From contig JAIDCJ010000019.1 of assembly GCA_029055875.1 (NCBI GenBank), positions 26,897 through 90,896 of the forward strand: DNA of 64,000 bases, given 5' to 3'. Source of the stretch: Clostridia bacterium. Lineage in GTDB: Bacteria; Bacillota; Clostridia; Christensenellales; Borkfalkiaceae. This document shows positions 35,122 to 62,153 of this stretch, piece by piece (position 1 is the stretch's first letter; every line of letters starts with the position of its first letter). Under the pieces are notes generated by a model. That model worked only from the letters and a program-made list of their open reading frames with translations, was not told where the DNA came from and did not search any database. Both the position numbers and the translations under genes were made by a program.

Positions 35122-35165
35122 TTTTGGCAGGGGAGACGCGATTCGAACACGCAACCTACGGTTTT
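35122..35165. repeat. att junction: 44 bp copy of the tRNA-Trp 3' part (distal end of the ICE)
   Basis: Identical over 44/44 nt to 60656..60699 (TTTTGGCAGGGGAGACGCGATTCGAACACGCAACCTACGGTTTT). Confidence 0.9.
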
Positions 35166-35211
35166 TCAATCGCGATTCAACCGCCAATCCTCGCCCCAAC
35201 CTAATTCATCT

Positions 35212-35265
35212 AAAAAGAAATAATAAAAAGCACCAAAGAACGGAATGTGCCGTAGACTTTGGTGC
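35212..35265 (-). terminator. intrinsic terminator downstream of the integrase
   Basis: Stem GCACCAAAG/CTTTGGTGC (35230-35238 / 35257-35265) with an inner ACGG/CCGT stem. A long T-rich run follows on the - strand. Confidence 0.6.
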
Positions 35266-35415
35266 ATGATAATCCATGAAAATGTCTACACTCACTCCTC
35301 TCTTTATTCAGTTACTCTTAAAAAAGAGAGGACCCGGGTCGAAACACACCCGTCGGCGCTTATCGCTCCGACCCGTGAGTGCCTATTAAAAATATATCAC
35401 ATATATTTGCAGATG

Positions 35416-36321
35416 TCAACATTCAGCTGCCAATTTTTTGAAAATTTTTCCATTTCTTGAGAGCGGAGTGACTTGTTCGCAGACGTTTTTGAGCTCGTTC
35501 GAATATAACCTTACATATTTCTTCGTTTCTTCCATGGTTCGATGCCCGAGCCAACGTTGCAGCATCATCGCGTTACAGTTATTTTCCACCATGATTTTGC
35601 CGAACGTATAACGGAAAAGATGCACTCCAGTCTTATTTACACCGCATCGTGCCATATAACGTTTGACTGCCTTGTAAACGGTGGAACGATCATACATCTT
35701 TCCACCATCCGTATTCTGAAACAAAGGACCGTCTTTGATATGACTTTTTACTAAATACATTCGCAGCAGGTTATTCAATATGTCGCTCATAGGAAGAACC
35801 AGGACGTCACGATTCTTTGTAACCCTCAACGTCACAAATCCCCTTTCAAAATCGACATCTTCAGCCCTGACATTCCGAACCGTTTTTGAACGTACGCCGG
35901 TATCGAGTATGAACGCGACGAGGACCGAGTCGGAATCGTCAGGCGAAAATTGCATTGTAAGTTTACAAACATCTTCGTCCGATAACGGCGAACGTACCGT
36001 CATTTCTTCGCGTTGGAACACAAAATTGGGAATGGAATATCCCGGCTTAATTTCTTCCTGATAAAAGTGACAAAGGCGGCGAAGCGCTTTCAGACGATTG
36101 TTTATCGTGCGCGGCATACAATCACGCTCCAGCTGAAAAAATACATAATCTTTTACAATGTTGTCCGTAATCTGCTTGAATCTGCTTATGCCCTCTTCTT
36201 CAAAGAATTTCATAAAATCCTTCGCGGATGCAGCATAGGTCTCCAAAGAATCGGGTGATAAATTTCGCACGATGTTGTCCCGCTGCCATGCCTTAATTGT
36301 TTCCTCAATTTCCTTTTTCAT
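35416..36321 (-). CDS. tyrosine integrase (phage integrase family)
   Basis: SAM-like N-domain and catalytic C-terminus (..HLFRYTFG..WLGHRTMEETKKYVRLY). Adjacent to the att repeat. Confidence 0.85.
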   Translation of the reverse strand: MKKEIEETIKAWQRDNIVRNLSPDSLETYAASAKDFMKFFEEEGISRFKQITDNIVKDYVFFQLERDCMPRTINNRLKALRRLCHFYQEEIKPGYSIPNFVFQREEMTVRSPLSDEDVCKLTMQFSPDDSDSVLVAFILDTGVRSKTVRNVRAEDVDFERGFVTLRVTKNRDVLVLPMSDILNNLLRMYLVKSHIKDGPLFQNTDGGKMYDRSTVYKAVKRYMARCGVNKTGVHLFRYTFGKIMVENNCNAMMLQRWLGHRTMEETKKYVRLYSNELKNVCEQVTPLSRNGKIFKKLAAEC

Positions 36322-36456
36322 AGTTCCTCCTTTTCTTTTGTGTATTTGAAAAAAGAACGCCCGTACTCGCGTACAGGCGGACTATCAAAATATCAAGATT
36401 AAAAAAATCGGTCAAGCGATATTGCCGCCCCAAACGCGATTTTTACCTAAAAATCT

Positions 36457-36479
36457 TGTACGTACATTCTGTACGTACA
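36457..36479. promoter_or_regulatory. GTACGTAC tandem pair (a), upstream of int
   Basis: TGTACGTACA-ttc-TGTACGTACA. Confidence 0.7.
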
Positions 36480-36640
36480 CGTTTTTAGCGCGAAATTCGC
36501 CCTCTAAGGCACATACCCCTCATATCGACTCATTGCTCGACACACGGCCGATTTGGGCCTCTCCGTCGATTTCTTGGGGCATTTCTTTGACGATACCCCT
36601 TCTCTTTTCAAAACTCATAGAGAAAGCACAAAAAGAAAAA

Positions 36641-36664
36641 TGTACGTACATGACCGTACGTACA
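36641..36664. promoter_or_regulatory. GTACGTAC tandem pair (b), after the lipoprotein gene
   Basis: TGTACGTACA-tgac-CGTACGTACA. Confidence 0.7.
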
Positions 36665-36690
36665 AAAATGCGATGCGGATATGATTGCCA

Positions 36691-37104
36691 TTATCCGAAT
36701 ACTATTTCTTTTTGCCATTCATTGTAGGACTGTTTTGTACGAGTAAAAACGCGACTTGCGGTTGAACTGTCAATGTCGAGACTGTCTCCCCACAAAAGTT
36801 GATCGTTGTTCGTTAAAACAATATAAGAGGTCACATCACCCCTTACCGCCTGATAGCATTTATCATGCCCTTCCACAGAAGACAAGGTATATTTTAATTC
36901 CGTTGTAGAAGATTCAGTACCATGCTTTGACATCCACTTTAATGTCTCGCCCTTCACTTCAATATAAATATGGGTTTTCGAAGATTCGACATCACATCTC
37001 CAGCTCCCCTCTATCCCCTTATCTCCGCACGCAACGAGTGAAACGCAAGCGAGTACGACGAGAAGCAAGCTCGTAAATACAGCAATCAGTTTTTTCTTCA
37101 TCAT
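36691..37104 (-). CDS. lipoprotein, unknown function
   Basis: Signal peptide with lipobox LVAC|G. AAGGAG RBS. Confidence 0.6.
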   Translation of the reverse strand: MMKKKLIAVFTSLLLVVLACVSLVACGDKGIEGSWRCDVESSKTHIYIEVKGETLKWMSKHGTESSTTELKYTLSSVEGHDKCYQAVRGDVTSYIVLTNNDQLLWGDSLDIDSSTASRVFTRTKQSYNEWQKEIVFG

Positions 37105-37130
37105 TTTACTCCTTTTTATTTTGTGATTTC

Positions 37131-37158
37131 ATTATACGGTTTTTCCAATATTTGTCAA
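37131..37158 (-). promoter_or_regulatory. promoter TTGACA-16-TATAAT for the lipoprotein gene
   Basis: -10 at 37131-37136 and -35 at 37153-37158 on the - strand. Confidence 0.6.
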
Positions 37159-37171
37159 GTACAATGCAGAC

Positions 37172-37203
37172 AAAAAGAAATGTCCGTACGGTTTGTACGG
37201 ACA
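37172..37203 (-). terminator. intrinsic terminator after ssb
   Basis: Stem TGTCCGTAC/GTACGGACA, 5 nt loop, then TTTCTTTTT on the - strand. Confidence 0.7.
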
Positions 37204-37206
37204 TTT

Positions 37207-37229
37207 TGTACGTACACTCTGTACGTACA
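37207..37229. promoter_or_regulatory. GTACGTAC tandem pair (c), 2 nt after the ssb stop
   Basis: TGTACGTACA-ctc-TGTACGTACA. Confidence 0.7.
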
Positions 37230-37231
37230 AC

Positions 37232-37540
37232 TTAGCTCTTTGGTGCGCGGTCCGTAAACTCAACCTGTGCATTGATGAGCTTTACGGCTACGCGCTTTTC
37301 ATCGTTCTTCTCATAGAGATCGATGTCAAGGTCTCCCGCTGCAAAAATGCCGGCACCCTTTTTGAGATACTTCTCGCAATTCTCGGCAACCTTGCCCCAA
37401 ACTTCCACACGGAGTACATCCGGCGCTTCTTTGCCGGGACGGTTGGATGCTACGGTAAGAGTGCAAACTTTCTTGTCGTCTCCGACGGCCTTGGTCTCGG
37501 GATCCTTTACGAGGTTCCCCTGGATTTGTGTTTTTATCAT
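37232..37540 (-). CDS. ssb: single-stranded DNA-binding protein (short, no acidic C-terminal tip)
   Basis: OB-fold SSB pattern (QGNLVKDPE...VEVWGKVAENCEKYLKKG..V..G.L). Confidence 0.7.
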   Translation of the reverse strand: MIKTQIQGNLVKDPETKAVGDDKKVCTLTVASNRPGKEAPDVLRVEVWGKVAENCEKYLKKGAGIFAAGDLDIDLYEKNDEKRVAVKLINAQVEFTDRAPKS

Positions 37541-37576
37541 ACTTTTCTCCTTTCCGCTCGCGCGGTATAAAATTTC

Positions 37577-40237
37577 TTAAATCGGTGTCTGAATATCTCC
37601 ACGCTCAAGCATGGCTACAGCATCCGGATAATCGAACAAAGTATAAACGACGTCGGAAGCGACGACCTTAAAGCTCGTCCGCTCTCCGGGCGAACAGATT
37701 ACAAAACATTCGCCGTTCCCGGCATTTGCAATTTGGTTGCGCTCCGTATCGTTTATTTCTCCCGCCGAGCGGTAAAGCTCCGTGAGGAGCGATAAGTCAC
37801 CCGCTGCCAGGGAGAAGATAAATGAGTACTGTGTGTTATTGATGATGGCCGTTGTTTTCTGAACTATTGCTTCATTTCCGATTATATCAGAAAGGTTCTG
37901 CGTTAGGAACATCATAGCGCCCTCGTACTTTCTAATTCGCTTGTACCATTGATAAACGAAATCAAGCGCAATCGGATATTCGGGATCAATAAAATTATAG
38001 CCCTCGTCGATTGCTACGAACGGATGAATCTTCTTTGTGGAATTACGATTTGTTTCGCGGATATTGATTATTTGCTGATCGAGATACCGCATGATAACAA
38101 GCATCTGTGCGTTGGCAACGACGTTGTTCTTTGCTCCAAGCAGCGATTGGAAGTTAAACACTACAAAGCGTTCATCCGACTTTAACGTCGAAGGTCCATT
38201 CCACAACATGGAAAAGCGGCCGCCCGCTGCGAACTTCGCAACGTATGTTTGCACGCGCTCCAGGTTGGCCCGTTTCGAAGGCAACGTCTCCGATTTTAGT
38301 TTCTCTTCCACCGTCTTCATGAGGTCATCGAACGTCGGATAGTCTTCTGCATGGAGCTGCGTGAAATCTGTCTGCTCCGTAATGCCGCGCTTCTCGTAAA
38401 CCTCAGAAAGAATGTTATTGAGTTCTTCAAGGCTATCAGACGTAATTCCTGCAAGCGTTATCCTGAAAAAGCTCTCAAGAAACTGCAAGTGCGACGAAAA
38501 AACCACCTCAGGCGACGCTGGATTACCGTCATCCGTGAGGATCTGATAAACGTGCAAAGGATTGATTCTCCCCTCAGTCGCGTTCCCGACGTCAATAAAA
38601 CGCCCGCCTACGTTCCTGCAAAGATTGATATATTCATTTTCGGGATCCAGCACGTATATCTTTGTATTCTCTGAGTACACAAGAGAAAGCAACGTCTTTG
38701 TGAAAAAGGATTTGCCGGAACCGGACTTTCCGATCGCTATGATATTGCTGTTTATGTAGCGCTGGTTCCGTTTCCATATATCGAGGACCACCGGATAATT
38801 ATCATATCCGAGCGTGAGCCCTTCCGTTTCAATAATCGAAGAAAACACAAAAGGAAATACCGCAGCGAGCGTTTCGGAATTGATGCCGCGTTCAAGGCGG
38901 CGAAGACCTGTTTTTCTCGATACGGTAGCAGCGGCAAACGCATCGAACTGACGTCCATGGAGAAAATTCAGCTTAAATCCCGCCGCAGTAATCTCTCTTC
39001 GAATCTCCTTCTTGAATGCCGAAACCGCTTCTTTCGAATTGTTAAAGCCTGTTATCGTGAAAGTACAATCGAATAGAAGCTCGTTCTCGTTCTGAATAGT
39101 CTGTGCGAGCTCTGCAATCGTCTGCACGTTCGTCTCCTGGCTTATGGCCTCGCTCAGCTTTCCGCTTCCCGTCTGCGACTGAAGCTCTACAACGGCGCGA
39201 TCCAAACGCTTGATTGCCTTACTCTTCTCTACAGGCTTTATCGTCAATACTACTTTTGTGTTATCGATATTAAAGATACCTGCACCCCATGCGTTTGTAA
39301 CAAATAGAGGATAATCGGATATAGCGCACGTAAACGATATTACGTCGTCGCAAATGCAGGACGATGCTGTGAACTTCACGTTTTCGGGTTTAATCCAATC
39401 CGCATATTGCTCCGGTGTCAGATTGTCAATTTCACGCTCATCGAAGTTTCTCGTATAGCAATACTTGAAAAAAACGGCGACGTCTTTTGCGCCGAGTAAT
39501 TCAGTATCGAGCCCGGCACGTCCTATTTCTGCGCATACAAGATTTATTTGTTGGTACAAATTCTTCTTCTCGGTATCATAGACTACGAAATAATAGAACG
39601 GCCGATACTGCTTCTCAATGTTGTTTATCGTATCGATTTGTTCCAGGCGGCTTTGCAAAATCATTACTTTCGCCTTGTCGATTGGCTTTTCCGCGCGTGC
39701 AGCTTCGAGCTTTTGGAAGATAGGAGCCGCGACGTCATCGTAATTGATAGGCCTATCGATTTTAACGATTTGCAAAACGGCGCTTTCGCCGAGCATATTC
39801 AGAAGTCTTGCAAGGATGGATATTCTCTTGTTTTGCTCAAATTCATCAAGGAGCGCAAACTCAACGCTTCCGATAGAAATAACTGCCCCGAAATATTTAC
39901 CATAATTGACAATTCCATCATCATCGATGCTCTCAAACGGTATCAGGTTGGAGACGTCCGCTTTCTGTTTCTTTGCTCCCTTTGTGTACTTTTTCCTGGA
40001 TGCAAGGTATTTGAGCAGATATACAATAATGTTGTAAGTTCTTTCATTCTCGTCTGAAAAGAAAAGAATAATCGAGAACCCAACGAAGACAGCCAATAAA
40101 ATCCATTTATAGGTGAAGTTCGTCATAGCTATCAATAACGCAATGCCCATCAATGCAATCGCAAGAAAAAGATCAAAGATGGTAAAGTTTCTCCACAACG
40201 TTGCGTTGACTTTACTCTTTTTAGGTATCATCCTCAT
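37577..40237 (-). CDS. VirB4-family conjugative ATPase with an N-terminal VirB3/PrgI-like two-TM module
   Basis: Walker A GKSGSGKSF and Walker B VAIDEG. The N-terminal 70 aa is hydrophobic. Confidence 0.85.
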   Translation of the reverse strand: MRMIPKKSKVNATLWRNFTIFDLFLAIALMGIALLIAMTNFTYKWILLAVFVGFSIILFFSDENERTYNIIVYLLKYLASRKKYTKGAKKQKADVSNLIPFESIDDDGIVNYGKYFGAVISIGSVEFALLDEFEQNKRISILARLLNMLGESAVLQIVKIDRPINYDDVAAPIFQKLEAARAEKPIDKAKVMILQSRLEQIDTINNIEKQYRPFYYFVVYDTEKKNLYQQINLVCAEIGRAGLDTELLGAKDVAVFFKYCYTRNFDEREIDNLTPEQYADWIKPENVKFTASSCICDDVISFTCAISDYPLFVTNAWGAGIFNIDNTKVVLTIKPVEKSKAIKRLDRAVVELQSQTGSGKLSEAISQETNVQTIAELAQTIQNENELLFDCTFTITGFNNSKEAVSAFKKEIRREITAAGFKLNFLHGRQFDAFAAATVSRKTGLRRLERGINSETLAAVFPFVFSSIIETEGLTLGYDNYPVVLDIWKRNQRYINSNIIAIGKSGSGKSFFTKTLLSLVYSENTKIYVLDPENEYINLCRNVGGRFIDVGNATEGRINPLHVYQILTDDGNPASPEVVFSSHLQFLESFFRITLAGITSDSLEELNNILSEVYEKRGITEQTDFTQLHAEDYPTFDDLMKTVEEKLKSETLPSKRANLERVQTYVAKFAAGGRFSMLWNGPSTLKSDERFVVFNFQSLLGAKNNVVANAQMLVIMRYLDQQIINIRETNRNSTKKIHPFVAIDEGYNFIDPEYPIALDFVYQWYKRIRKYEGAMMFLTQNLSDIIGNEAIVQKTTAIINNTQYSFIFSLAAGDLSLLTELYRSAGEINDTERNQIANAGNGECFVICSPGERTSFKVVASDVVYTLFDYPDAVAMLERGDIQTPI

Positions 40238-41928: not shown

Positions 41929-41937
41929 AGACGTTCC

Positions 41938-42261
41938 CTATTCATTAACCCAAGTTTGGAAGACCGAAATAAGGATTGGCAGCAGTGCAGCGACAGCAAA
42001 CATGATAACGACTCCGACCACAACACCAACTGTCGCGGTTTTTGCTTCTTTGCGCTTTTGCTCATCGCCACCGGCGCGCCACCATTTCAAACCAATCCAT
42101 ACACCGAGGATTGTACAAGCTGCTGCGAGAATCGCAATCGTGGGCACCCACATGGAATTGAACATATCCGTAAGTTTGGTTTGGAAATCGCTCCAATCAC
42201 CACTCGATACCATCAAATTTCCTAACATCGATGCCAGCAAGTTTCCTAAAAGTTGTTGCAT
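41938..42261 (-). CDS. small two-TM protein, VirB2/TrbC pilin-like topology
   Basis: Leader-like N-terminus, then two hydrophobic helices separated by the basic loop KWWRAGGDEQKRKEAK. Confidence 0.4.
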   Translation of the reverse strand: MQQLLGNLLASMLGNLMVSSGDWSDFQTKLTDMFNSMWVPTIAILAAACTILGVWIGLKWWRAGGDEQKRKEAKTATVGVVVGVVIMFAVAALLPILISVFQTWVNE

Positions 42262-42305
42262 TTTTTAACCTCCGTTTTTTTGTGTTTTTATATATACAGC
42301 GTTTT

Positions 42306-42327
42306 TGTACGTACAAACGTACGTACA
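42306..42327. promoter_or_regulatory. GTACGTAC tandem pair (d), between the adhesin and VirB2-like genes
   Basis: TGTACGTACA-aa-CGTACGTACA. Confidence 0.7.
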
Positions 42328-42342
42328 TTCTTCGCTGGAATT

Positions 42343-47973: not shown

Positions 47974-47984
47974 AATTCACTCCT

Positions 47985-50213: not shown

Positions 50214-50221
50214 ACGGCCCT

Positions 50222-50578: not shown

Positions 50579-50588
50579 ATTGCCCCCA

Positions 50589-50611
50589 TGTACGTACACG
50601 CCGTACGTACA
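50589..50611. promoter_or_regulatory. GTACGTAC tandem pair (e), 3 nt after the relaxase stop
   Basis: TGTACGTACA-cgc-CGTACGTACA. Confidence 0.7.
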
Positions 50612-50613
50612 AA

Positions 50614-52404: not shown

Positions 52405-52447
52405 AGCTCTCCTTGTGCTCTCGGAAAAATGGTTTCCATTTTGTCCC

Positions 52448-52593
52448 GCAGAAGTGACTCACCCTGAGTCTCTTCTGCACCCCAGGTGAGTCACTTGTTT
52501 ATATACTTCGTATATAAGCAGCTGAAAAATCAGCCAAGTGAGTCACCTCTTATCCTGCTTCACCTCGGAACGTGGTTTTTTTACGTTCCGAGG
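52448..52593 (+). promoter_or_regulatory. candidate oriT
   Basis: - 12 bp inverted repeat AAGTGACTCACC / GGTGAGTCACTT at 52452 and 52485.
- Third copy at 52536.
- TATCCTGC at 52551-52558.
- 11 bp hairpin at 52563-52593. Confidence 0.5.
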
Positions 52594-52694
52594 AGCGGAA
52601 TTACTATTCCGAACCCCTGCGGAACGCAGTTCAAATATGGAGCGAAGCTCTACCGATTTTCACGGCGCCACAGCGCCGAAATAAGGTTTTGATT

Positions 52695-55600
52695 TTAATG
52701 TCCTTTGCCATTGCTCGGACCTTTAGACGGGCCCCTAAAGGCCCCGCCTTGCCCTTGACCGATTCGGGTTGTTAGTCCTTTACACGCAGCGGCCACGGAC
52801 CGCTGCAAATAAGGTTCGCCCTTTTCAGGACGGTATAGGCCGGACGTTCGGAAGATGCGCGCCATCTGTTCTTGGTTGCCGTCGGTGAAGAAGGCAAGCA
52901 TATTCAGAAGGCGGTAGTCGCTACGGCTGTGATCGTTTGCTAAATTCTCACCGGCCATAAGCGCATCGAACTCAGGACCTTTTTTTGACTTTCGGATGCG
53001 GTCAATGATTTCTTGATCGCTCCCCTCTACGCTCTTGTTCGGTGTGAACGTCTGTTGCGGTGCACGTTCGCCAAGGGTGCGGCGCAGCCAGGCTTTCGTT
53101 GTCTGAGGTGTTTTGCCAAGTGTATGTACGTTTGTACGTACGTTTCCCGTCATCGAAATGAAGCGACCGCTATCATAGACCTCAATTTCACCGTCCGCAG
53201 TCTCTGTACGGTTCTTTATCTTCCCGCCAACGAGAATGTCGTCCTTCAAGAAGATATGGATGCCGTTCCCGGATGCGGACGTTTCGGTGTATGTCTCAGA
53301 AATCTCTGAGGTGAGTTTCTGAGCGGTTTCTGTCAGCTTACCGTCTTTATCGATGCACTTATCGAGATCGATACAGGAAATGCCGTTTGCAGCATCGAGC
53401 GCGAACGCAAGCCCTTCGGCGCCGTGTTCGAGCGCGTACTGCTTGGCCGTTTCGAAGTCGGTCCATTTCGAAGGATCATTTGATTTGGCCCACTTACCGT
53501 CAACCGGAGAAACGATCGTCTTGTCCTTTTTGCCCTTCTCGGCGTTCCATTTCGTATGGAACACGCACCAGTTTGGCAGAGCCTTCATTTCTTCCGGAAC
53601 GTTGGCGGTGAGCCTATCCATAGCCTCAACCGACCGACGACTCGGTGCGGTCCGCTGCGCGCTCTTGCCGACTTCTTTGCCTTCGAAGGCGGCGCGCAGT
53701 TCCGATCCGCTCAGCTTTACTTCCCTTCCGTCATTGCGGATAGTGTATTCAGAATTTGCATCGACAGACAACTTCATCGAGCCTTCTTTCTCTCCCGGCT
53801 TTAACCAGGCTTTGGGAACGAAAAGCACAAAATGAGAATATTCCCCCTGCGGGAGCTTTATCATGCGGTTCTTGCTTTCGCCTTCGGCGCCGAGCAGTTC
53901 GGCGGGAATATCGAGGTTCAGCCACTCACGGCCATTTTTCGGCACGTTCGCTTCGAAATTCGGCTTCTGAGGGGCATCTTCGGCGCTTTCGGATATTTTC
54001 TCAGCATCGTCTTCTTGCATTCTTAAATCGTTATTTTTCAAGCCCAAATACTGAATTAGCTTTTCAGTAGTAGGATTTGCTCCCCCGGTAAAAAGATTTT
54101 CTGTACGGGTCTCCCAATACCAACCTTCCGGCATTTCAGCGCCATCAAACGTGTCATTCATATTCCCGGTCATGAAAGCTCGAACATTCTCTGCGGTTTC
54201 TTCAGACGTCGCACCGGTGAGCTTGTAAACGAAGTATGTTTTATTTGCTGCGAAGGCGCCGTCCTGAACATCGAGCTCAGGATTGAAGTCCGGATCCTCT
54301 GCGCTAAGCTGTGCTGCCGTATAAACAGTATTTTCTTCTTTTAACCCCTTCCAGTTATATACGACACCATAAAGCGGAGATTGTAGGAGTTCTTCAGCCT
54401 CAATGTCATCGTGCAACGGTATTTCCGCATCATGAGCTTTTATCTCTTCCGGCGTTAAAGGCATATTGTCTTTGTAATCAGAGAACGGCGACGTTGTATT
54501 TAGAACGTGGCGTGCTTGGTCCACGTACTCACCTACGGATTTCTGGTCTTCTTGAGATAATGCAGCATAGTCCGATACTTCCATGTGGCGCTTGAAATAT
54601 TCAAGTGCAGCTTCGGCCTCTGCGCGCGCTTGAGGCTCCAGGAATGTGTCATTCTTTAGGAACTCGTCTATGTGATGCACTAAACCACCACCTTCAATTC
54701 CAATATCGAACCTGCAATTTTCATAGCAATCGGGCTTCCCTTCGAAAACAAAGTCAATATGTAACTTCGTTTTGTAATACCCTCGTTCACGATCGGACTC
54801 TGCATCAAGCTGCTTTAGCTTTTTATCTGCCTCAGACAATGACATGACGTCATATTGTTCGATATTAGGGAACCCGCCCGACTTTTCCGTCCATTCAACC
54901 GTAACATGGGGCTCACCGGTCTCTGCCGCAAGGCGCCGAGCTGCAGCTCGAGCGTTCGCTAATCTCTGCGCAGCCGTCTCTCCGGTAAAAGCGGAATAAA
55001 TATCCTTATACGAAGTGTTGGTTAATTCCGAAAGATGCAAAAAGGCACGCTCACGAATAACCGAATCTTCGCCGAGCATTCCATATACGGAAATAGGATT
55101 TGGACGGTTTACTTCTTCCCACAAGTCTTTGAACGTGGCTTTAGGATGAATAGATTGTCCGGCTTCGTCGTTTGGATAGGCTTTTGAATACCACTCTTTG
55201 ATATTCTCGTTTAATCCTTGTGCATCATTGGAAGAATTTTCTGAAATTTTTTCGGCAGAAGGCTTGACAAATGCGCGAGATTTACGTATAATAATATCAG
55301 AGTCAAGGCTTGCCATAACGTCGGGGAATTGGACCCCGGGGTTCACCGACAAGGCTTGGCTTTTTTCTTTGTTGTAATAGAGCACATTGCCCTTTTCGAT
55401 ATTGCGCTCAATAAATGCTTGGAAATTATCCTTTCCGTAAGCGCTCGTAAGGATGTTCGCATCTATAACTCGATTATCACGTCTGCCGAACCCATTCAGC
55501 TTTATCGCTCCGATAACGGGGCGATTTTCTTTATCAATCGATTCAGTCACTACAACTATGCTGTCATCCCGCGTAAGACTATCCATAATCATCACGGGCT

Positions 55601-56864
55601 CTGAAAGGAGACCAGGAAGCTGCTTTACCGTTTCAGCTTCAAGTCCATGATAATTTTCTTCCCCATCGCCCTCTTCCTGCATAATGCTCTTCAGGTGCTT
55701 TGCCGTCATGAGAATAGGAAGATTAGGAAGCCCGACGTCTTGGAGAATCTGAGGTGTCGTAGGCAAAACTTCAAGATGCGAATTTGTTGTGTCTGCGCCG
55801 CTCAGAACTCTATCAACTTGGTCCGCGAACGACACGTTGCGCTCGAACACGGGCATAGCTTCGCTTTCGTTGGAATGATTTTTTTCTTGTGCACTCTCTT
55901 CTGCACGTTCGGCTTGAAGGTAATGCTCTGCAACGTAGTCGGAAATCTTCTCTGCATCACGCGCAGCTGCGAAAAATTCCTTTGTATCTTCGCGGACCGC
56001 TTTTAACCAAGACGTCAGATAAGCGCCATGATTTTCAAAGTGGTGGCCGTCGATCGTGATGCCGAGCTCTGTTTGCATGAATACGCTGGCGAGCTCGGCG
56101 CGCAGCTCCTCTTTCGCATAGTCTTCTGTTCCGAAGATTCCTTTAAGATCTCGATTAAGGCGGCTTTCGTGGCCGGTGCTGTGCGCAATCTCATGCAGCG
56201 CGGTGGCATAATAGTCCTGCATCGATTTGAAGTCTTCGATCTTCGGAAGATGTATCTCATCAAGTGAAGGACTGTAATAAGCCTTCGAACCGCCGTAAGA
56301 AATGGGCGCAGCGCTGTTCTTGATTACTTGCTCGATTAAAGCGTTCTGACGTGCACGTTCCTCGGCCGCCATCTCCGGCGTGAGCTCTTCCTTCTTCCGT
56401 TCCGGGAAGTTATCGCATTGCTCGGCATTGAATACTTGATAGAACTTGAGCACCAGGCGCACGTTCTCTTCGAAGTATTTCATTTTTTCTTCTTGTGTCA
56501 TCCCTTCGACGGTTTTCTCATCGAAGGGTTTTTTCGTAAGTTTATCGTATTGGGACCAATAGGAAATTTCCCGCGCCTTTTCCCCGCGTTTGACGTGCGC
56601 GCCGAGCTCATGCGCCTGGTTAAACGTTACCCAGCGGTTATCGGTATAGCCCATCTTTGCAGAAACCATCATCAGATAAAGCAGATTGATCCCCCGATAC
56701 GGTTTCCCGGTGGAACCGTTCATAGGGATCTCGGATGCAGACTTATACCAGCCGCGTTCCCACTCGGCAGAGTTGTTTTGAATGAAATCGAGCATGGTGT
56801 TCACCATTTCGTTACGTTTGGCCTCTACCTTCTCACGGTAGCTCATCGGTTCTTTCTCGCTCAT
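52695..56864 (-). CDS. polyvalent protein: ArdC-like (ssDNA-binding plus HExxH) N-terminus, ~750 aa unassigned middle, Prim-Pol plus PriCT-like C-terminus
   Basis: - PYRGINLLYL..RWVTFNQA (ArdC N-terminal domain).
- LHEIAHSTGH.
- C-terminal IDLD and SASGNGIHIF primase-polymerase motifs.
- SDYRLLNMLAFF helical domain. Confidence 0.8.
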   Translation of the reverse strand: MSEKEPMSYREKVEAKRNEMVNTMLDFIQNNSAEWERGWYKSASEIPMNGSTGKPYRGINLLYLMMVSAKMGYTDNRWVTFNQAHELGAHVKRGEKAREISYWSQYDKLTKKPFDEKTVEGMTQEEKMKYFEENVRLVLKFYQVFNAEQCDNFPERKKEELTPEMAAEERARQNALIEQVIKNSAAPISYGGSKAYYSPSLDEIHLPKIEDFKSMQDYYATALHEIAHSTGHESRLNRDLKGIFGTEDYAKEELRAELASVFMQTELGITIDGHHFENHGAYLTSWLKAVREDTKEFFAAARDAEKISDYVAEHYLQAERAEESAQEKNHSNESEAMPVFERNVSFADQVDRVLSGADTTNSHLEVLPTTPQILQDVGLPNLPILMTAKHLKSIMQEEGDGEENYHGLEAETVKQLPGLLSEPVMIMDSLTRDDSIVVVTESIDKENRPVIGAIKLNGFGRRDNRVIDANILTSAYGKDNFQAFIERNIEKGNVLYYNKEKSQALSVNPGVQFPDVMASLDSDIIIRKSRAFVKPSAEKISENSSNDAQGLNENIKEWYSKAYPNDEAGQSIHPKATFKDLWEEVNRPNPISVYGMLGEDSVIRERAFLHLSELTNTSYKDIYSAFTGETAAQRLANARAAARRLAAETGEPHVTVEWTEKSGGFPNIEQYDVMSLSEADKKLKQLDAESDRERGYYKTKLHIDFVFEGKPDCYENCRFDIGIEGGGLVHHIDEFLKNDTFLEPQARAEAEAALEYFKRHMEVSDYAALSQEDQKSVGEYVDQARHVLNTTSPFSDYKDNMPLTPEEIKAHDAEIPLHDDIEAEELLQSPLYGVVYNWKGLKEENTVYTAAQLSAEDPDFNPELDVQDGAFAANKTYFVYKLTGATSEETAENVRAFMTGNMNDTFDGAEMPEGWYWETRTENLFTGGANPTTEKLIQYLGLKNNDLRMQEDDAEKISESAEDAPQKPNFEANVPKNGREWLNLDIPAELLGAEGESKNRMIKLPQGEYSHFVLFVPKAWLKPGEKEGSMKLSVDANSEYTIRNDGREVKLSGSELRAAFEGKEVGKSAQRTAPSRRSVEAMDRLTANVPEEMKALPNWCVFHTKWNAEKGKKDKTIVSPVDGKWAKSNDPSKWTDFETAKQYALEHGAEGLAFALDAANGISCIDLDKCIDKDGKLTETAQKLTSEISETYTETSASGNGIHIFLKDDILVGGKIKNRTETADGEIEVYDSGRFISMTGNVRTNVHTLGKTPQTTKAWLRRTLGERAPQQTFTPNKSVEGSDQEIIDRIRKSKKGPEFDALMAGENLANDHSRSDYRLLNMLAFFTDGNQEQMARIFRTSGLYRPEKGEPYLQRSVAAACKGLTTRIGQGQGGAFRGPSKGPSNGKGH
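53121..53142. promoter_or_regulatory. degenerate GTACGTAC pair (f) inside the primase coding region
   Basis: GTATGTAC-gttt-GTACGTAC. Lies at the Prim-Pol / PriCT-like domain boundary (encodes NVRTNVH). Confidence 0.4.
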
Positions 56865-56874
56865 ATACTTTTCC

Positions 56875-57084
56875 TCATTCGTCGGTTTCTATCAGATACT
56901 CTTCGGAAGGATCCTCTTGCGGAAGTTCCGAAGCTGGAGTTGCCCGACAACCGAAATATTCTTCCGCAGCTTCGATGATGCTCTTCCCTTCCGCTCGCGG
57001 GATTGTTATTTGCGGCTGCGATTGTTCGTTAGACATAAGCTCATCGAACCCGGGCCCTTTCTTTGATTTCAAAATTTCACTCAT
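56875..57084 (-). CDS. small acidic protein; the N-terminus duplicates a PriCT-flanking segment of the primase
   Basis: ILKSKKGPGFDELM versus IRKSKKGPEFDALM in the large ORF. The start overlaps the upstream ORF by 8 nt. Confidence 0.35.
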   Translation of the reverse strand: MSEILKSKKGPGFDELMSNEQSQPQITIPRAEGKSIIEAAEEYFGCRATPASELPQEDPSEEYLIETDE

Positions 57085-57286
57085 AATCCCCCCCTACATC
57101 CTGTGTTTGTTCCATATCGGGCCAAATACCCCATTTGCTTATATCTGCCTCACCCGTAACGCGCCATCCGATTCCTAGCACAATCGAAAGTATCATCAAT
57201 GCACCCATCAACCCAAGACAGAATTTTCCCCATATGTCTTTTATGAACGTCCAAAAGACATACATTATTGCTTTGAAAGTTTCCAT
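57077..57286 (-). CDS. small single-TM protein
   Basis: AAGGAG RBS 7 nt before the ATG. One hydrophobic helix. Confidence 0.4.
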   Translation of the reverse strand: METFKAIMYVFWTFIKDIWGKFCLGLMGALMILSIVLGIGWRVTGEADISKWGIWPDMEQTQDVGGDYE

Positions 57287-57516
57287 TTACTTCTCCTTTG
57301 ACACTCTAGGCGGGGCAACTACGTTTCCCCGCACCCTTTCCTCGGAAAACACAAAAGAAAGATAGATTTCAGACAAATGTTTCATGCACGGTTTTGCATA
57401 AATATACATTCGGGCCATGCCCTACGCGCGGGTGCGCGGTTTGTATAAATAATCTCTCTGAAATATCTCTCTTGTGCTCTCACAGAGTTAGATATAATTA
57501 TATATGGTGGTAAAAT

Positions 57517-57584
57517 TTCTTTACCAGGTCATTAAGTTTCTTTACTAGTTAAATCTCTTTACCGGTTAAATTCTTTGACTAGTT
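57517..57584. repeat. four iteron-like direct repeats TTCTTTAC(Y)(R)GTT
   Basis: Copies start at 57517, 57538, 57555 and 57571. Each ends in a small palindrome (ACCAGGT / ACTAGT / ACCGGT / ACTAGT). AT-rich GATATAATTATATAT is adjacent at 57491. Confidence 0.6.
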
Positions 57585-57591
57585 AAAATTT

Positions 57592-57951
57592 TTAACCACT
57601 TTCCGCACCATCATTGTTTGGAAGGAGCTGTTGCAAGCCCGCTTTCATCGCATCGATCTTCTCGTAATTGACACGGTAGGCCGTCCGCTGCATCTTCGTT
57701 CCCTGCATCTCGAACGTACGCTTGAGTATGTAGCCTTTTTTGACTAAATTTGCGAGTGCAGAAACGGCCGTTGGCCGAGAGATATTTGCGAAATCTTCCA
57801 GGTACGTCAAAGAGCCCTTCCATTCGCTTTCGCCGTCCTGGGAGAAGCTGTAAACGATTGCAAAAACGATTAGCTCATTGCCTTTGAGGTCTAACACGTT
57901 CAGCATCCAGCCCAAAACGGTGTAAAAGTTGTCGTCGCGTATTCTTGACAT
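57592..57951 (-). CDS. winged-helix DNA-binding protein (HTH_36-like), possible replication initiator or regulator
   Basis: ..LKGNELIVFAIVYSFSQDGE..GSLTYLEDFANISRPTAVSALANLVKKGYI pattern. AAGGAGA RBS before ATG 57951. Confidence 0.5.
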   Translation of the reverse strand: MSRIRDDNFYTVLGWMLNVLDLKGNELIVFAIVYSFSQDGESEWKGSLTYLEDFANISRPTAVSALANLVKKGYILKRTFEMQGTKMQRTAYRVNYEKIDAMKAGLQQLLPNNDGAESG

Positions 57952-57969
57952 TACGTCTCCTTTTGCTTT

Positions 57970-57992
57970 TGTACGTACGTTTTGTACGTACA
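57970..57992. promoter_or_regulatory. GTACGTAC tandem pair (g), 4 nt after the RHH gene stop
   Basis: TGTACGTACG-ttt-TGTACGTACA. Confidence 0.7.
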
Positions 57993-57996
57993 AGTC

Positions 57997-58224
57997 TTAA
58001 AGTCCAAGTTGCTGTTCTATAAAACGTCGAATTTCGGCCGATGCAGAAGTACCTCGAGCTTGACAGTCTTCCGCAAAGGTTTTCCATAAATCCTCACGGA
58101 TTCGAAGGTTTATTTTCATATCTTTTTTTGTGTTTTCAGTTGCACCAACAGAAGTGGATGCAATAATACTCCGTGCTGTATGGGACGGTGTTTCGCGCCG
58201 TTCAATAATGTTACCAAGAGACAT
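57997..58224 (-). CDS. ribbon-helix-helix protein, ParG-like centromere-binding candidate
   Basis: 75 aa with a flexible N-terminus followed by KINLRIREDLWKTFAEDCQARGTSASAEIRRFI (RHH). Overlaps the parA stop. Confidence 0.55.
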   Translation of the reverse strand: MSLGNIIERRETPSHTARSIIASTSVGATENTKKDMKINLRIREDLWKTFAEDCQARGTSASAEIRRFIEQQLGL

Positions 58225-59006
58225 TAGTCCACCCCCTTGGCCGCGAGAGTAGCGAGTATTTCATCGCAGAGCTTCTCATAGTCCTCGGCCACGCCGGAGT
58301 TCGGTGCATAATCGAACACGCTTTTGCCGTGCGACGGTGCATCTGCGGCCGCAACCGCAATGCGGATCGTGGAGTTAAAAACACGACTCCCGGCTTCTTC
58401 CGCGCGTTTTCTGATAACTTCGATTGCTTCTTTCGTGCTAGTTCTGCGAACATCAGCCATTGTAGCAACGAATCCGAGCACTTCGATGTCCGGCTTGATG
58501 GCCTGCACGTCGCACACACTTTCGAGGAGAAGATCCACACCTTTGAAGGAGTTATATTCCGGTTTGAAAGGAATGAGGACGTAATCGCTTGCTGTCAGTA
58601 CGTTTATGGTGGTGATTGATAAGGAAGGATTGCTGTCGATGATAACGTAATCGTATTTGCCATCGATTTTCTTTATTGCGCGCATCAGATAGCGCTCCCG
58701 GCCAACCTTCATGGCCAGCTTTGTATTTGCCTCTTCCAAACCAATATCGGACGTGATGATCGAGAGATTGTCTTTCAAGACTTCTTCTCGAGCGTGAGCT
58801 CCTTTATCGAGCTCGAGGAAGCAAAGCGCTTGCGGATAACCGACATTGTGCTCTGTAAGGCCGTACGACGTCGTTAAATGCCCCTGCGGGTCAAAGTCGA
58901 TAAGCAGGACCTTTTTCCCGCGCCGCGCGAACCCGTCCGCAAGAGCCATTGCTGTGGTTGTTTTCGCCACGCCGCCTTTTTGGTTTACTAAAGAGATAAC
59001 TTTCAT
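58224..59006 (-). CDS. parA: ParA/ParF-type partition ATPase
   Basis: Deviant Walker A NQKGGVAKTTT. AAGGAG RBS 8 nt before ATG 59006. Confidence 0.9.
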   Translation of the reverse strand: MKVISLVNQKGGVAKTTTAMALADGFARRGKKVLLIDFDPQGHLTTSYGLTEHNVGYPQALCFLELDKGAHAREEVLKDNLSIITSDIGLEEANTKLAMKVGRERYLMRAIKKIDGKYDYVIIDSNPSLSITTINVLTASDYVLIPFKPEYNSFKGVDLLLESVCDVQAIKPDIEVLGFVATMADVRRTSTKEAIEVIRKRAEEAGSRVFNSTIRIAVAAADAPSHGKSVFDYAPNSGVAEDYEKLCDEILATLAAKGVD

Positions 59007-59010
59007 TTTC

Positions 59011-59106
59011 ACACTCCTTTTGTGTGCTCAGTATCGGATATTCCGATTTCTGAGGGGCCAAGAGCCAGACCCGACCTGGCTGTAATCCGTTAGTCTCGGC
59101 ATATCG
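59011..59106 (-). promoter_or_regulatory. 96 nt structured leader, copy 1 (upstream of parA)
   Basis: About 93% identical to 60050..60145. Nested hairpins at 59027-59054 and 59063-59081. Confidence 0.6.
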
Positions 59107-59129
59107 TGTACGTACGTTTTGTACGTACA
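59107..59129. promoter_or_regulatory. GTACGTAC tandem pair (h), upstream of leader copy 1
   Basis: TGTACGTACG-ttt-TGTACGTACA. Confidence 0.7.
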
Positions 59130-59156
59130 AAATGGAGAAGTGATTGCGTTAAGCTG

Positions 59157-60044
59157 CTATTTATAAAGTCTTTTGAGTTGCTTTTCCAAGTCTGATGCAA
59201 GATTAGCCTTGTCGACCGATTCCTTTGCAATTTCTTCTAAAATATCTTGTTTGGCTTGTGTAGCATTCTTTTGGATATTATGAATTGCCGAATTAACTCT
59301 TTCTGATTTGGGGGTATGGTATATGTCGTAATACGTAAATAAGCTCAATGCTTTTTCTACATTGTCTAAAGCGCCGTAAATATTTCCATATTCATCGCTT
59401 AGCTTACTCAAATCATCTTGATACTTGCTTATAAGTTGCTTCGCAACAGCCTCATTATCCGCTTTGATTTTACCGAGGATTTTCACACCGCGCGAACCGA
59501 TGCGCCGCTTCGTATCAAGTTCAGAGCAATAGAACCAACATCCCTGAACTTTCCCAACGAGATACAATGTTTTATCAATACGGTTCCCATAAATCGCCTT
59601 GTGGCGGTTTCCTTCGCTACCATCAAGGTAAATATCGATTTTAGCAACGGAAATATCTGCGGTCTTCAAATCTACGTTCTGATAAAGAGCGTAAAGCTCT
59701 TCTGATGTGTACTTATAGCGTTTGTATCGCTTTCCCGCTTCCCGATTCTCGGTCATCGTTGCTTCGTAAACAATTTCATTGTCGCGGTGCAGGCGATAGG
59801 TACAGTCATTTTCAAGTTCTTTCGTGTAGATCGGTTTGGCATTTTTAATACGTCGTCCGTTTTCATCTCGCTCCCATTCAACCCATATAGCATCGATATA
59901 AACTGTGTAGCCAGCGGGAAGCCCTGCGCTTTTCGGCAGCGCAAACACATAGCGGACGGCAAATGGATCATAGCACCCACCATAGCCGAATTTTGTGTAG
60001 CACTCCAATCGAATAAGATATTTCTTATCAATCAAAAGCTCCAT
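59157..60044 (-). CDS. hypothetical protein (295 aa), beta-rich N-terminus and coiled-coil C-terminus
   Basis: AAGGAG RBS 9 nt before ATG 60044. No motif I recognise. Confidence 0.5.
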   Translation of the reverse strand: MELLIDKKYLIRLECYTKFGYGGCYDPFAVRYVFALPKSAGLPAGYTVYIDAIWVEWERDENGRRIKNAKPIYTKELENDCTYRLHRDNEIVYEATMTENREAGKRYKRYKYTSEELYALYQNVDLKTADISVAKIDIYLDGSEGNRHKAIYGNRIDKTLYLVGKVQGCWFYCSELDTKRRIGSRGVKILGKIKADNEAVAKQLISKYQDDLSKLSDEYGNIYGALDNVEKALSLFTYYDIYHTPKSERVNSAIHNIQKNATQAKQDILEEIAKESVDKANLASDLEKQLKRLYK

Positions 60045-60049
60045 CTCGT

Positions 60050-60145
60050 ACACTCCTTTTGTGTGCTCAGTATCGGATATTCCGACTTCTGAGGGGCCAA
60101 GAGCCCGACTCGAACGGGCTGTAATCCATTAGTCTCGGCATATTG
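60050..60145 (-). promoter_or_regulatory. 96 nt structured leader, copy 2 (upstream of the 295 aa ORF)
   Basis: Duplicate of 59011..59106 with 7 substitutions. Two of them form a compensatory pair in the second hairpin. Confidence 0.6.
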
Positions 60146-60158
60146 TTGTTCGTACGAT

Positions 60159-60548
60159 TTATTTTTTTAGAATGCGAAGCGGGCAAGATGCTGGCCGCGA
60201 AGTTAAAGTATCTTCCGATGCGCTTATAATCTCATCTGTTACTTGGCAGCGAACGTTCGGCGAATCCGAATACTCATCCGTGAGCGGACACGCAACGCAG
60301 CTCGACGGCATTTCATCAGCTTTTACATACAACGTCTTAATGCTTCCGGTCTTTTCCGTTCCTGAAAAGGAAATTCCATGATTACGGCAAAAATTTTCAA
60401 AAAGCATACGGTATCGAGTTTGGGGAGAATGCTTGCCGCTCTCCCAAATACTCACTGTCGCATGAGAAATATTGAGTTCTTGTGCTAATTTCTCTTGTGA
60501 AATTCTCAGCTGTTCTCTTACCTGCACCACTTGCTCGCTAAAGGTCAT
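60159..60548 (-). CDS. XRE-family HTH regulator with a Cys-containing C-terminal domain
   Basis: ISQEKLAQELNISHATVSIWESGK HTH. GGAGAAGGAA RBS before ATG 60548. The longer ORF reads through the palindromes. Confidence 0.8.
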   Translation of the reverse strand: MTFSEQVVQVREQLRISQEKLAQELNISHATVSIWESGKHSPQTRYRMLFENFCRNHGISFSGTEKTGSIKTLYVKADEMPSSCVACPLTDEYSDSPNVRCQVTDEIISASEDTLTSRPASCPLRILKK

Positions 60549-60564
60549 TTCCTTCTCCTCATCA

Positions 60565-60600
60565 TGTACGTACGTTTTGTACGTACACTTCGTACGTACA
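60565..60600. promoter_or_regulatory. GTACGTAC tandem triple (i), directly upstream of xre
   Basis: TGTACGTACG-ttt-TGTACGTACA-ctt-CGTACGTACA, with a 13 bp register. Confidence 0.75.
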
Positions 60601-60604
60601 AAAA

Positions 60605-60640
60605 AGCAAAACAAAAAGGCCCCATCTTTTCAGATGGGAC
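60605..60640 (-). terminator. intrinsic terminator just inside the ICE end
   Basis: 10 bp stem at 60617-60626 / 60631-60640 with a 4 nt loop. TTTTTGTTTTGCTTTTTT follows on the - strand. Confidence 0.65.
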
Positions 60641-60655
60641 CTTTTTGTCCTTAAA

Positions 60656-60699
60656 TTTTGGCAGGGGAGACGCGATTCGAACACGCAACCTACGGTTTT
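60656..60699. repeat. att junction overlapping the 3' part of the intact tRNA-Trp
   Basis: Identical over 44/44 nt to 35122..35165. Confidence 0.9.
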
Positions 60700-62146: not shown

Positions 62147-62153
62147 ATAAAAA

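Follow-up and report, generated by a model that had tools for sequence, protein, structure and literature searches.

Within the window, by which we mean the whole stretch of 64,000 nucleotides analysed here (Clostridia bacterium, Borkfalkiaceae, Christensenellales; assembly GCA_029055875.1, contig JAIDCJ010000019.1, positions 26,897 to 90,896), positions 35166-60655 are best explained as a whole by an intact, cargo-free integrative and conjugative element (ICE) of ~25.5 kb, counted with one 44 bp core, for which transfer and maintenance are inferred; we hold this explanation with high confidence. The relaxase, the VirB4 ATPase, the type IV coupling protein (T4CP) and further mating-pair-formation genes lie in one cluster with its own recombinase and its own attachment (att) repeats, all long open reading frames (ORFs) between the repeats are open and on the minus strand, and a survey of profiles and ORFs found no cargo genes between the repeats. 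An earlier sequence-only reading of this DNA had also proposed an ICE, and that proposal is supported by the boundaries, by an empty site in the congener G003, by the patchy distribution of the relaxase and by the full gene set.

Structurally, the element is delimited by a 44 bp direct repeat whose copies, placed at 35122-35165 and 60656-60699 by a repeat finder run on the window, match each other perfectly; these two are the only copies in the whole 1,609,137 bp assembly, even when up to three mismatches are allowed. One copy lies in tRNA-Trp(CCA) at 60659-60733 on the minus strand, which is the sole tRNA in the window (ARAGORN; Rfam tRNA 63.9 bits, with nothing else found in an Rfam scan of the window) and the only tRNA-Trp among the 44 tRNAs of the assembly, so that the element is inserted in an essential gene of single copy, which it leaves whole. 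Read from the sequence, the 44 bp block reaches from A36, the third base of the anticodon, to 3 nt past the encoded CCA. Tyrosine integrases that target tRNA genes at the anticodon-loop sublocation leave an identity block reaching from the anticodon loop to or past the tRNA 3' end, and the block described here fits that class. On all of these points, namely the repeat flanking co-oriented genes, both of its coordinates and its extent from the anticodon loop to 3 nt past the CCA, the sequence-only reading proved correct. The boundary features are as follows, with the chromosomal genes rnhA (34584-35039) and lysA (60821-62182) on either side and the original chromosomal terminator hairpin, followed by rnhA, to the left of the distal att.

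35122-35165, minus strand: distal att, a 44 bp partial copy of the 3' part of tRNA-Trp (repeat, and empty-site alignment of 35082-35165 to G003)
60656-60733, minus strand: tRNA-proximal att (60656-60699) inside the intact tRNA-Trp (60659-60733); the right flank aligns to G003 from 60656
60608-60651, minus strand: ICE-borne intrinsic terminator, now 3' of tRNA-Trp (20-pair stem, then a T run)

Comparatively, the clearest evidence comes from the 40 relatives searched for the chromosomal neighbours rnhA and lysA. G003, the closest congener (87% identity in rnhA), has ~1 kb with a single tRNA-Trp between the two genes, and thereby provides the uninterrupted site that the sequence-only reading had proposed to look for in relatives lacking the insert. 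By BLASTN, the left flank (window 33007-35044 and 35082-35165) maps to 7673-9740 and 10570-10653 of the G003 locus and the right flank (window 60656-63000) to 10610-12950; both flanks converge on one 44 bp core at the G003 tRNA-Trp, and a three-way alignment identifies the hairpin beside the distal partial copy as the original chromosomal terminator. Such overlapping flank mapping is, at the level of alignment, the signature expected of a precise insertion. The relaxase was found in 12 of 101 genomes of the genus and is absent from the other 89, with a best identity of 58%. Given the unique repeat, the empty site in G003 and this distribution, neither of the two findings that the sequence-only reading regarded as fatal to it was obtained: the repeat does not recur at unrelated loci, and the same genes do not occupy this site in all relatives. 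The only other difference at the site is an extra gene of ~830 bp that G003 carries between rnhA and the terminator hairpin (L017 472-1280 versus window 35040-35092) and that is absent there in the window genome. Elsewhere in the window genome (contig C2, 135141-135446) we observed part of a relaxase gene, with three in-frame stops and 37% identity to the relaxase of the ICE, which is the decayed remnant of a second, related element.

The sole recombinase between the repeats is a tyrosine integrase, located at the distal partial copy while the intact tRNA stands at the xre end, an arrangement that the sequence-only reading had given correctly.

35416-36321, minus strand: Xer-like tyrosine integrase, 301 amino acids (aa), without an arm-binding domain (Phage_integrase 77.3 bits, and an N-terminal SAM-like domain)

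Its best NCBIfam matches are XerA, XerD and XerC, all below cut-off (124 of 220, 92 of 330 and 87 of 335 bits, respectively), and its closest solved structure is the archaeal XerA 4a8e, with which R, K, HxxR, H and Y are aligned; judged from these comparisons, the protein is Xer-like in size and fold class only. Relatives of the integrase are rare, with one found among 300 genomes of the host order (35% identity) and none among viral contigs.

Functionally, the transfer region comprises a relaxase, a T4CP, a minimal type IV secretion system (T4SS) and several associated proteins, including a single-strand DNA-binding protein (SSB), and profile searches support the roles that had been read from the sequence for the integrase, SSB, T4SS core, T4CP, relaxase, ArdC-primase, winged helix-turn-helix (wHTH) protein, ParA and XRE regulator.

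36691-37104, minus strand: lipoprotein, 137 aa (signal peptide and LVAC lipobox; no family match)
37232-37540, minus strand: SSB, 102 aa (Pfam SSB 67.7 bits; TIGR00621 55.1 bits, above cut-off)
37577-40237, minus strand: VirB4 ATPase of Mollicutes-ICE type, 886 aa (NF045975, the Mbov_0397 family, 617.5 bits, cut-off 590)
40234-41928, minus strand: polytopic VirB6-like channel protein, 564 aa (MMCAP2_0566 151.8 bits, cut-off 90; Mbov_0396 100.9 bits, cut-off 70)
41938-42261, minus strand: pilin-like protein with two transmembrane (TM) segments, 107 aa (Pfam T4SS_pilin 34.6 bits, cut-off 26.6)
42343-47973, minus strand: repeat-rich surface protein, 1876 aa (N-terminal signal/TM and C-terminal TM; repeats and TM ends read by eye)
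47985-50294, minus strand: T4CP (T4SS-DNA_transf 159.6 bits, TraG-D_C, TrwB_AAD_bind)
50222-50599, minus strand: ORF of 125 aa overlapping the listed T4CP start (no family match)
50614-51933, minus strand: relaxase, 439 aa, MobL, MOBP-related (Pfam MobL PF18555 74.2 bits, cut-off 28.5, residues 47-326)
51934-52404, minus strand: protein of 156 aa upstream of the relaxase (adjoins it in 9 of 10 related loci; no profile match)
52405-52694, unstranded: candidate origin of transfer (oriT) region (several GTGAGTCAC palindromes and hairpins; inverted and direct repeats)

The relaxase falls below the NCBIfam cut-offs for MobP2 (66.6 against 200 bits) and MobP3 (73.5 against 150 bits) and shares 26-29% identity with the MobL/MobP2 relaxases of pLS20-type Bacillus plasmids, which is also the best relaxase identity in PLSDB, where no close plasmid relative was found (best VirB4 identity 25-28%). 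The 156 aa protein beside it, on the strength of its position, is a candidate relaxosome accessory protein; the label 'MobC-like' that it had been given finds no profile match. The T4CP just passes the conju_CD1115 cut-off (251.1 against 250 bits), the VirB6-like protein has a weak pLS20_p028 match, and the pilin-like protein scores 30.3 bits against the Mbov_0395 family (cut-off 40). The 1876 aa protein holds the same position in relatives (32-42% identity in loci L041-L049, 24% in L050 and L051); it had been called an adhesin, for which the repeats and TM ends and a weak Pfam BiPBP_C match (E 9e-7, no qualifying domain stretch) offer slight evidence, and we treat it as a putative mating adhesin. 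The lipoprotein, read as such before, is borne out by the signal peptide and lipobox in its translation, and entry exclusion or mating contact are guesses at its role.

By profile, this T4SS is assigned to curated Mollicutes-ICE families, here in a walled Christensenellales host: the host encodes penicillin-binding proteins and a MurG homologue and thus has a cell wall. The order of the channel core, namely pilin-like protein, TM protein and ATPase, is identical in Spiroplasma and Mesomycoplasma records. Evolutionarily, a quick maximum-likelihood tree of VirB4 (LG+G4, 24 proteins, no outgroup, with thin sampling and with Mollicutes rows of deviant composition and long branches) groups the window family with three Mollicutes proteins and a sister set from Christensenellales of small genome size on one side of a branch (SH-aLRT 97), opposite the B. 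thuringiensis-plasmid and CD1110 types. Among 300 Clostridia genomes, VirB4 scores above 550 bits are confined to the host family and a single further family within its order. In family f19, of the same order, each of the six genomes sampled (G171, G204, G234, G262, G289 and G420) encodes a VirB4 of Mollicutes-ICE type (554-593 bits); these genomes are very small (0.8-1.0 Mb at 99-100% completeness), and the presence of VirB4 is striking for genomes so reduced.

The likeness to the Mollicutes ICEs, such as ICEA of M. agalactiae and ICEB of M. bovis, extends from the shared order of pilin-like protein, polytopic TM protein and VirB4 to the SSB, the T4CP and a surface lipoprotein, and VirB1 and VirB8 are recognisable in neither (PMC12857230, PMC6030558). 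Mycoplasma ICEs lack VirB1 and VirB8, which has been ascribed to the wall-less state (review, PMC12857230); in the element's proteins neither was recognised, and such domains may lie hidden. The two groups differ in that Mollicutes ICEs integrate by a DDE (Mutator-like) transposase, CDS22, with no site preference, whereas this element has a tyrosine integrase and a tRNA site, for which reason we do not file it as a Mollicutes ICE (MICE). Unlike those elements, it also has a recognisable MobL relaxase, a ParA with its putative ribbon-helix-helix (RHH) partner, a wHTH-iteron unit and an ArdC/primase polyvalent protein, its host is walled, and its VirB4 shares 26-28% pairwise identity with the Mollicutes proteins. 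It is conceivable, though to our minds rather doubtful, that this Clostridia lineage is ancestral or sister to the Mollicutes ICEs and represents an ICE/plasmid hybrid with a minimal channel across a wall, iteron-based replication, ParA/RHH segregation and freely swapped recombinases. If so, a minimal channel working across peptidoglycan would contradict the view of the minimal gene set as an adaptation to wall-less cells.

Towards the xre end lies a candidate module for plasmid-like maintenance.

52695-56864, minus strand: polyvalent protein, 1389 aa (ArdC-N, zincin MPTase, MuF_C, LPD25, NrS-1-type primase-polymerase and helix-bundle domain, all Pfam)
56875-57286, minus strand: two overlapping ORFs of 69 aa (no family match; the first weakly conserved in relatives)
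57494-57597, unstranded: four iterons and an AT-rich tract (17/17/21-38 nt spacing, directly after the wHTH stop codon)
57592-57951, minus strand: wHTH protein, 119 aa from the ATG at 57951 (HTH_36 31.9 bits; PHROG replication-initiator N-terminal families; kept in relatives)
57997-58224, minus strand: putative RHH protein, 75 aa, downstream of parA (RHH_1 16.9 bits, cut-off 20.5)
58224-59012, minus strand: ParA-family ATPase, 262 aa, without an N-terminal HTH (AAA_31 162.5 bits, from residue 3)

The ParA, a small Walker-type ATPase, reaches 120 of the 180 bits required for ParA_partition and 23.0 of 24 bits for VirC1. Its downstream 75 aa partner is probably an RHH protein, a homologue of which also follows parA in locus L047; with RHH_1 below its cut-off, the earlier RHH label is borne out only weakly, and the further label 'ParF/ParG-type' was not established, ParA_partition being below cut-off as well. 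The iteron array, described before from the sequence, consists of four copies at ~17 bp spacing directly after the wHTH stop codon, and in all four related loci checked (L043, L045, L047 and L048) 4-5 repeats with 17 bp spacing likewise follow the wHTH gene. The iteron sequence itself changes from element to element while position and spacing stay, as is expected of a protein and its cognate sites coevolving, which argues that the unit is functional as an origin or centromere. The wHTH protein is a candidate iteron-binding initiator and the iteron region a candidate origin or centromere. For a type Ib partition system, the palindrome pairs described below are a further candidate centromere beside the iterons. 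The C-terminal part of the polyvalent protein matches NrS-1 primase structures (7ola, E 6e-30). Judged from this gene content, plasmid-like persistence of the excised circle is likely: the ParA/RHH/wHTH/iteron module, on which the sequence-only reading had based plasmid-like maintenance, is real and conserved, whereas replication and segregation by it are functions that we infer.

Among integrated conjugative elements, the pairing of a ParA-family ATPase and a small DNA-binding protein, together with a candidate origin, recalls srpMRC of SXT/R391, soj of PAPI-1 and the type Ib ICEs. In a survey of 200 ICEs, partition systems were found in 23, five of them type Ib; theta-type replication proteins were restricted to MPF_T and MPF_G ICEs, rolling-circle ones were seen in MPF_FATA, and none of the MPF_FATA ICEs lay beside a tRNA (Cury et al. 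2017, PMC5587801). The element differs from those 200 ICEs in combining a Firmicutes-type T4SS, a tRNA site and a predicted iteron-type unit (PMC5587801).

Several observations weigh against an intact ICE with plasmid-like maintenance. Neither a VirB8-like protein nor a cell-wall hydrolase was recognised among the element's proteins, so the channel may be incomplete or rely on host functions. Profile searches of the small ORFs recognised no recombination directionality factor or excisionase (Xis), in agreement with the sequence-only reading. No attP junction and no conspecific empty attB was observed, the k=31 contigs of the read data ending inside the 44 bp repeat, and with almost no integrase relatives in the order, the site preference of the integrase rests on this one insertion. 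On the side of maintenance, the wHTH protein is, at 119 aa, shorter than typical iteron Rep proteins, and a primase-polymerase carried in a polyvalent protein of the recipient-directed type is weak evidence for vegetative replication.

These last points lend themselves to the main alternative, which we consider possible and less probable than maintenance and in which the element is a true ICE whose ParA/RHH pair, wHTH-iteron unit and primase-polymerase serve transfer. Here, ParA and the RHH protein would position or load the relaxosome, much as VirC1 and VirC2 do, the iterons would be an accessory site, and the ArdC/primase protein would enter the recipient, act against restriction and prime the complementary strand; the excised circle might then replicate as in ICEBs1, where relaxase-driven rolling-circle replication starts from oriT. 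The near-cut-off VirC1 match of ParA, the presence of an SSB gene, the short wHTH protein and the fusion of the primase-polymerase to ArdC-N, zincin peptidase, MuF_C and LPD25 domains, which are polyvalent-protein hallmarks, all fit this account, as does the survey, with theta-type replication proteins confined to MPF_T and MPF_G ICEs and rolling-circle ones present in MPF_FATA (PMC5587801). It is opposed by the iterons and AT-rich tract after an initiator-like wHTH gene, a standard theta-origin layout that four relatives keep while the sequence changes, by the position of ParA, far from relaxase and oriT and adjoining the wHTH gene, and by a read depth of the ICE above that of the chromosome.

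That depth comes from one of three runs of a single study, all assembled into k=31 contigs. In this run, the probable source, depth is 28 for the ICE contig of 23.9 kb, and the two chromosomal contigs to the left of the element have depths of 21.6 and 21.7, a ratio of 1.29; this single, weak measurement answers the suggestion in the sequence-only reading that ICE and chromosome depths be compared. The excess suggests extra ICE copies, contributed either by replication of an excised form or by a second host. Such a second host, which could account for the excess and would count against its use for maintenance, would be another gut population that carries an identical ICE after recent transfer, with no extra copies per cell. 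This we regard as somewhat unlikely: the depths themselves (28 against 21.6-21.7) are what it would predict, the sample is a complex gut metagenome, and in a sister sample, X2, contigs of a related strain span the left chromosomal flank to 35159 and none covers the ICE (which we do not count as an empty site, missing contig cover being no evidence of absence); yet no contig of the three runs joins an ICE end to a different flank, the loose contig ends at 35165 reading only as tRNA 5' halves, a mixture from several organisms, and no near-identical copy occurs in the species-representative genomes searched. Very unlikely, finally, is a formerly mobile element that is now fixed, that is, an immobilised ICE or integrated plasmid remnant incapable of excision or transfer, as might be argued from the missing excisionase, hydrolase and VirB8-like gene, from the lack of junction reads in the k=31 contigs and from the relaxase pseudogene on contig C2, which shows that such elements decay in this host, because the two 44 bp repeats have stayed identical, no backbone ORF is interrupted or shortened by comparison with relatives, the catalytic residues of the integrase and the palindrome arrays at eight promoters (described below) are intact, the element is absent from the nearest species, and its depth does not equal that of the chromosome.

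For an intact ICE with plasmid-like maintenance, we posit the following course of events. The Xer-like recombinase inserted the element into the 3' part of tRNA-Trp by a crossover within the 44 bp common to attP and attB, probably at the anticodon-loop end; the element brings a substitute for the tRNA 3' part together with a terminator of its own, and the tRNA thereby stays whole. While integrated, the element would be silenced by a repressor, the XRE or the RHH protein, bound to TGTACGTACA arrays at eight promoter regions. Upon induction, the integrase would excise the circle, with no helper recognised, and the MobL-type relaxase and the 156 aa accessory protein would nick oriT in the 52405-52694 spacer. 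The T4CP could then feed the strand to the minimal VirB4/VirB6-like/pilin-like channel of Mollicutes-ICE type while the 1876 aa surface protein holds the mating pair, and in the recipient the SSB and the ArdC/primase-polymerase polyvalent protein would protect and prime the strand. ParA, the RHH protein, the wHTH protein and the iterons would most likely sustain the circle, by the firing of an origin and/or by segregation, up to its reintegration at tRNA-Trp.

Regulation of this kind is suggested by a 10 bp palindrome, TGTACGTACA, which, with up to one mismatch allowed, matches the window 21 times where 0.8 matches are expected; 20 of these lie inside the element, as do 10 of the 11 exact copies in the genome. 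The copies form eight pairs or triplets with 13-14 bp spacing, all intergenic, upstream of int (two clusters), lipoprotein, pilin, 125 aa/T4CP, wHTH, parA and xre, and at the lipoprotein and int promoters the arrays can be read just upstream of good -35/-10 hexamers.

36457-36479 and 36641-36664, unstranded: two TGTACGTACA palindrome pairs upstream of int
37194-37229, unstranded: TGTACGTACA palindrome triplet, 13 bp spacing, just upstream of the TTGACA-17-TATAAT lipoprotein promoter
42306-42327, unstranded: palindrome pair upstream of the T4SS core genes
50589-50611, unstranded: palindrome pair near the start of the 125 aa ORF
57970-57992, unstranded: palindrome pair upstream of the wHTH gene
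59011-59129, unstranded: 97 nt leader and palindrome pair (59107-59129) upstream of parA
60565-60600, unstranded: palindrome triplet directly upstream of xre
60159-60548, minus strand: XRE-family HTH regulator, 129 aa from the ATG at 60548, with a four-Cys C-terminal tail (HTH_3 31.4 bits)
59157-60044, minus strand: protein of 295 aa, a beta-rich N-terminal domain followed by a coiled-coil hairpin (AlphaFold2 model, pLDDT 92)

From this arrangement, it looks as if one regulator controls the whole element through the TGTACGTACA arrays. Candidates for the palindrome binder are the XRE protein, whose gene has a triplet before it as in autoregulation and whose DicA, RstR and MqsA-like matches are below cut-off, and the RHH protein, for which omega of pSM19035 and KorB of RK2 provide analogies. 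An exact search of metagenome contigs for two palindromes at 13 bp spacing returned 76 loci, and at none of them is there a gene related to one of the ICE; none of the fetched relatives carries the motif. The 97 nt leader before parA (59011-59107) is duplicated at 60050-60146 with 93% identity, before the 295 aa gene, as a shared leader or ribosome-binding-site region. Between the palindrome pairs of the lipoprotein gene-int promoter region, ~160 nt (36480-36640) hold no convincing ORF and may be a small RNA or a regulatory spacer.

The 295 aa protein occurs in only one other of 300 genomes of the order. It has 54 homologues without a Pfam match, two of which (P0010 and P0011) are fused to a C-terminal NrS-1 helix-bundle domain, which hints at a link of this family to primase-polymerase function. 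Fold comparisons returned nothing against the PDB with Foldseek, only a generic C-terminal coiled-coil hairpin with VIA-align and no usable match in the Atlas.

The element belongs to a wider family. A scan of species-representative genomes yielded eleven loci with a related relaxase, in metagenome-assembled genomes (MAGs) labelled Christensenella, Christensenellaceae, Borkfalkiaceae, Lachnospiraceae, Clostridia and Bacillota. By tBLASTn, ten loci share, in whole or in part, the order parA, rhh, (ssb), wHTH, ArdC/primase, accessory, relaxase, T4CP, surface, pilin-like, VirB6-like and VirB4; ParA and the wHTH gene are kept in all relatives, and the window integrase is not conserved among the related loci. 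In three relatives (G019, G117 and G120) parA directly follows VirB4/SSB, so the window order represents the same circle opened at a different point, with the lipoprotein, integrase, attP, xre and 295 aa genes between SSB and parA. The integration modules vary: a perfect 152 bp repeat, which holds most of a tRNA-Pro gene, delimits the G117 element, whose tyrosine integrase is a different one (339 aa), likewise at the end distal to the intact tRNA, and the G118 element, chromosomal between a thiamine pyrophosphate (TPP) enzyme gene and pheT, has a 565 aa large serine recombinase. Across these loci, one backbone is combined with at least three integration modules, and a backbone with swapped recombinases fits the independent histories of integrases and conjugation systems described by Cury et al. 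(PMC5587801). As for circularity of the related contigs, C5 of G019 shows no terminal overlap and C7 of G120 no end repeats. Beside its integrase, the G117 element carries a Fic/DOC-domain gene (L054 4201-5250), a cargo or addiction candidate absent from the window element, and transposase-like UPF0236 genes lie just beyond VirB4/ParA in G120 (L052 4728-6119) and G118 (L053 1310-2779). In G019, at least eight 9 bp repeats with an RGCAAGCC-like consensus stand between the parA promoter and the start codon (contig C5 12873-13000, L037), by appearance a typical type Ib centromere/operator layout, and the same 9 bp repeat recurs inside the coding sequence of the ArdC region.

Among better-known systems, the pLS20-type Bacillus plasmids (MOB_L) resemble the element in their Pfam MobL relaxase and in the weak pLS20_p028 match of the VirB6-like protein; they differ as free plasmids with a different, fuller Gram-positive T4SS, and the element's relaxase remains below the MobP2/MobP3 cut-offs. 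ICEBs1, a tyrosine-recombinase element at tRNA-Leu, shares with it integration into a tRNA 3' part with gene reconstitution, an identity block from the anticodon loop to past the 3' end, an XRE-family regulator at one end and co-oriented transfer genes. Unlike ICEBs1, the element has a short, 301 aa Xer/XerA-like integrase with no arm-binding domain, placed distal to the intact tRNA, no recognised counterpart of Xis or ImmA, and a T4SS of a different family.

ICEs that sit in tRNA genes or that carry partition or replication genes are known kinds, as are polyvalent ArdC-primase proteins, and the element leaves the general picture of ICE biology unchanged; what is new is in the detail, namely the family itself, the Mollicutes-ICE channel link in a walled host and the joining of a tRNA site and an iteron unit to a Firmicutes-type T4SS. 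Christensenellales are common in the guts of animals and humans, where they are heritable members of the community, and a full-text literature search found no description of ICEs or other mobile elements in them. The element provides a precisely delimited, cargo-free reference for a family found repeatedly in MAGs of Christensenella, Borkfalkiaceae and other Clostridia, and a case of module exchange in which a conserved plasmid-like backbone occurs with three different integration modules. It also shows that the mycoplasma ICE machinery, which has been regarded as a minimal solution for wall-less cells (PMC12857230), occurs in a Firmicutes lineage with a cell wall, and the element's recognisable relaxase, candidate oriT and maintenance module could guide the search for counterparts in mycoplasma ICEs. 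Its small size, single-palindrome regulon and simple Xer-like integrase are possible genetic tools for gut Clostridia that have no such parts.

Two minor candidates in the boundary region were rejected: a Thr_leader on the terminator/palindrome region remained sub-threshold (Rfam 33.9 bits against a cut-off of 55), and the resemblance of the ICE sequence beside the distal core to a degenerate tRNA 5' half is not significant, 562 of 5000 shuffles scoring equally well. With regard to the chromosomal surroundings, the tRNA-Trp adjoins lysA only in the window genome itself and in G003. In most congeners (G012, G023, G013, G011, G015, G018 and others) rnhA-tRNA-Trp lies 35-39 kb from lysA and in the opposite orientation, and an inversion of ~36 kb with a breakpoint just upstream of tRNA-Trp seems to separate the window genome and G003 from the other congeners.

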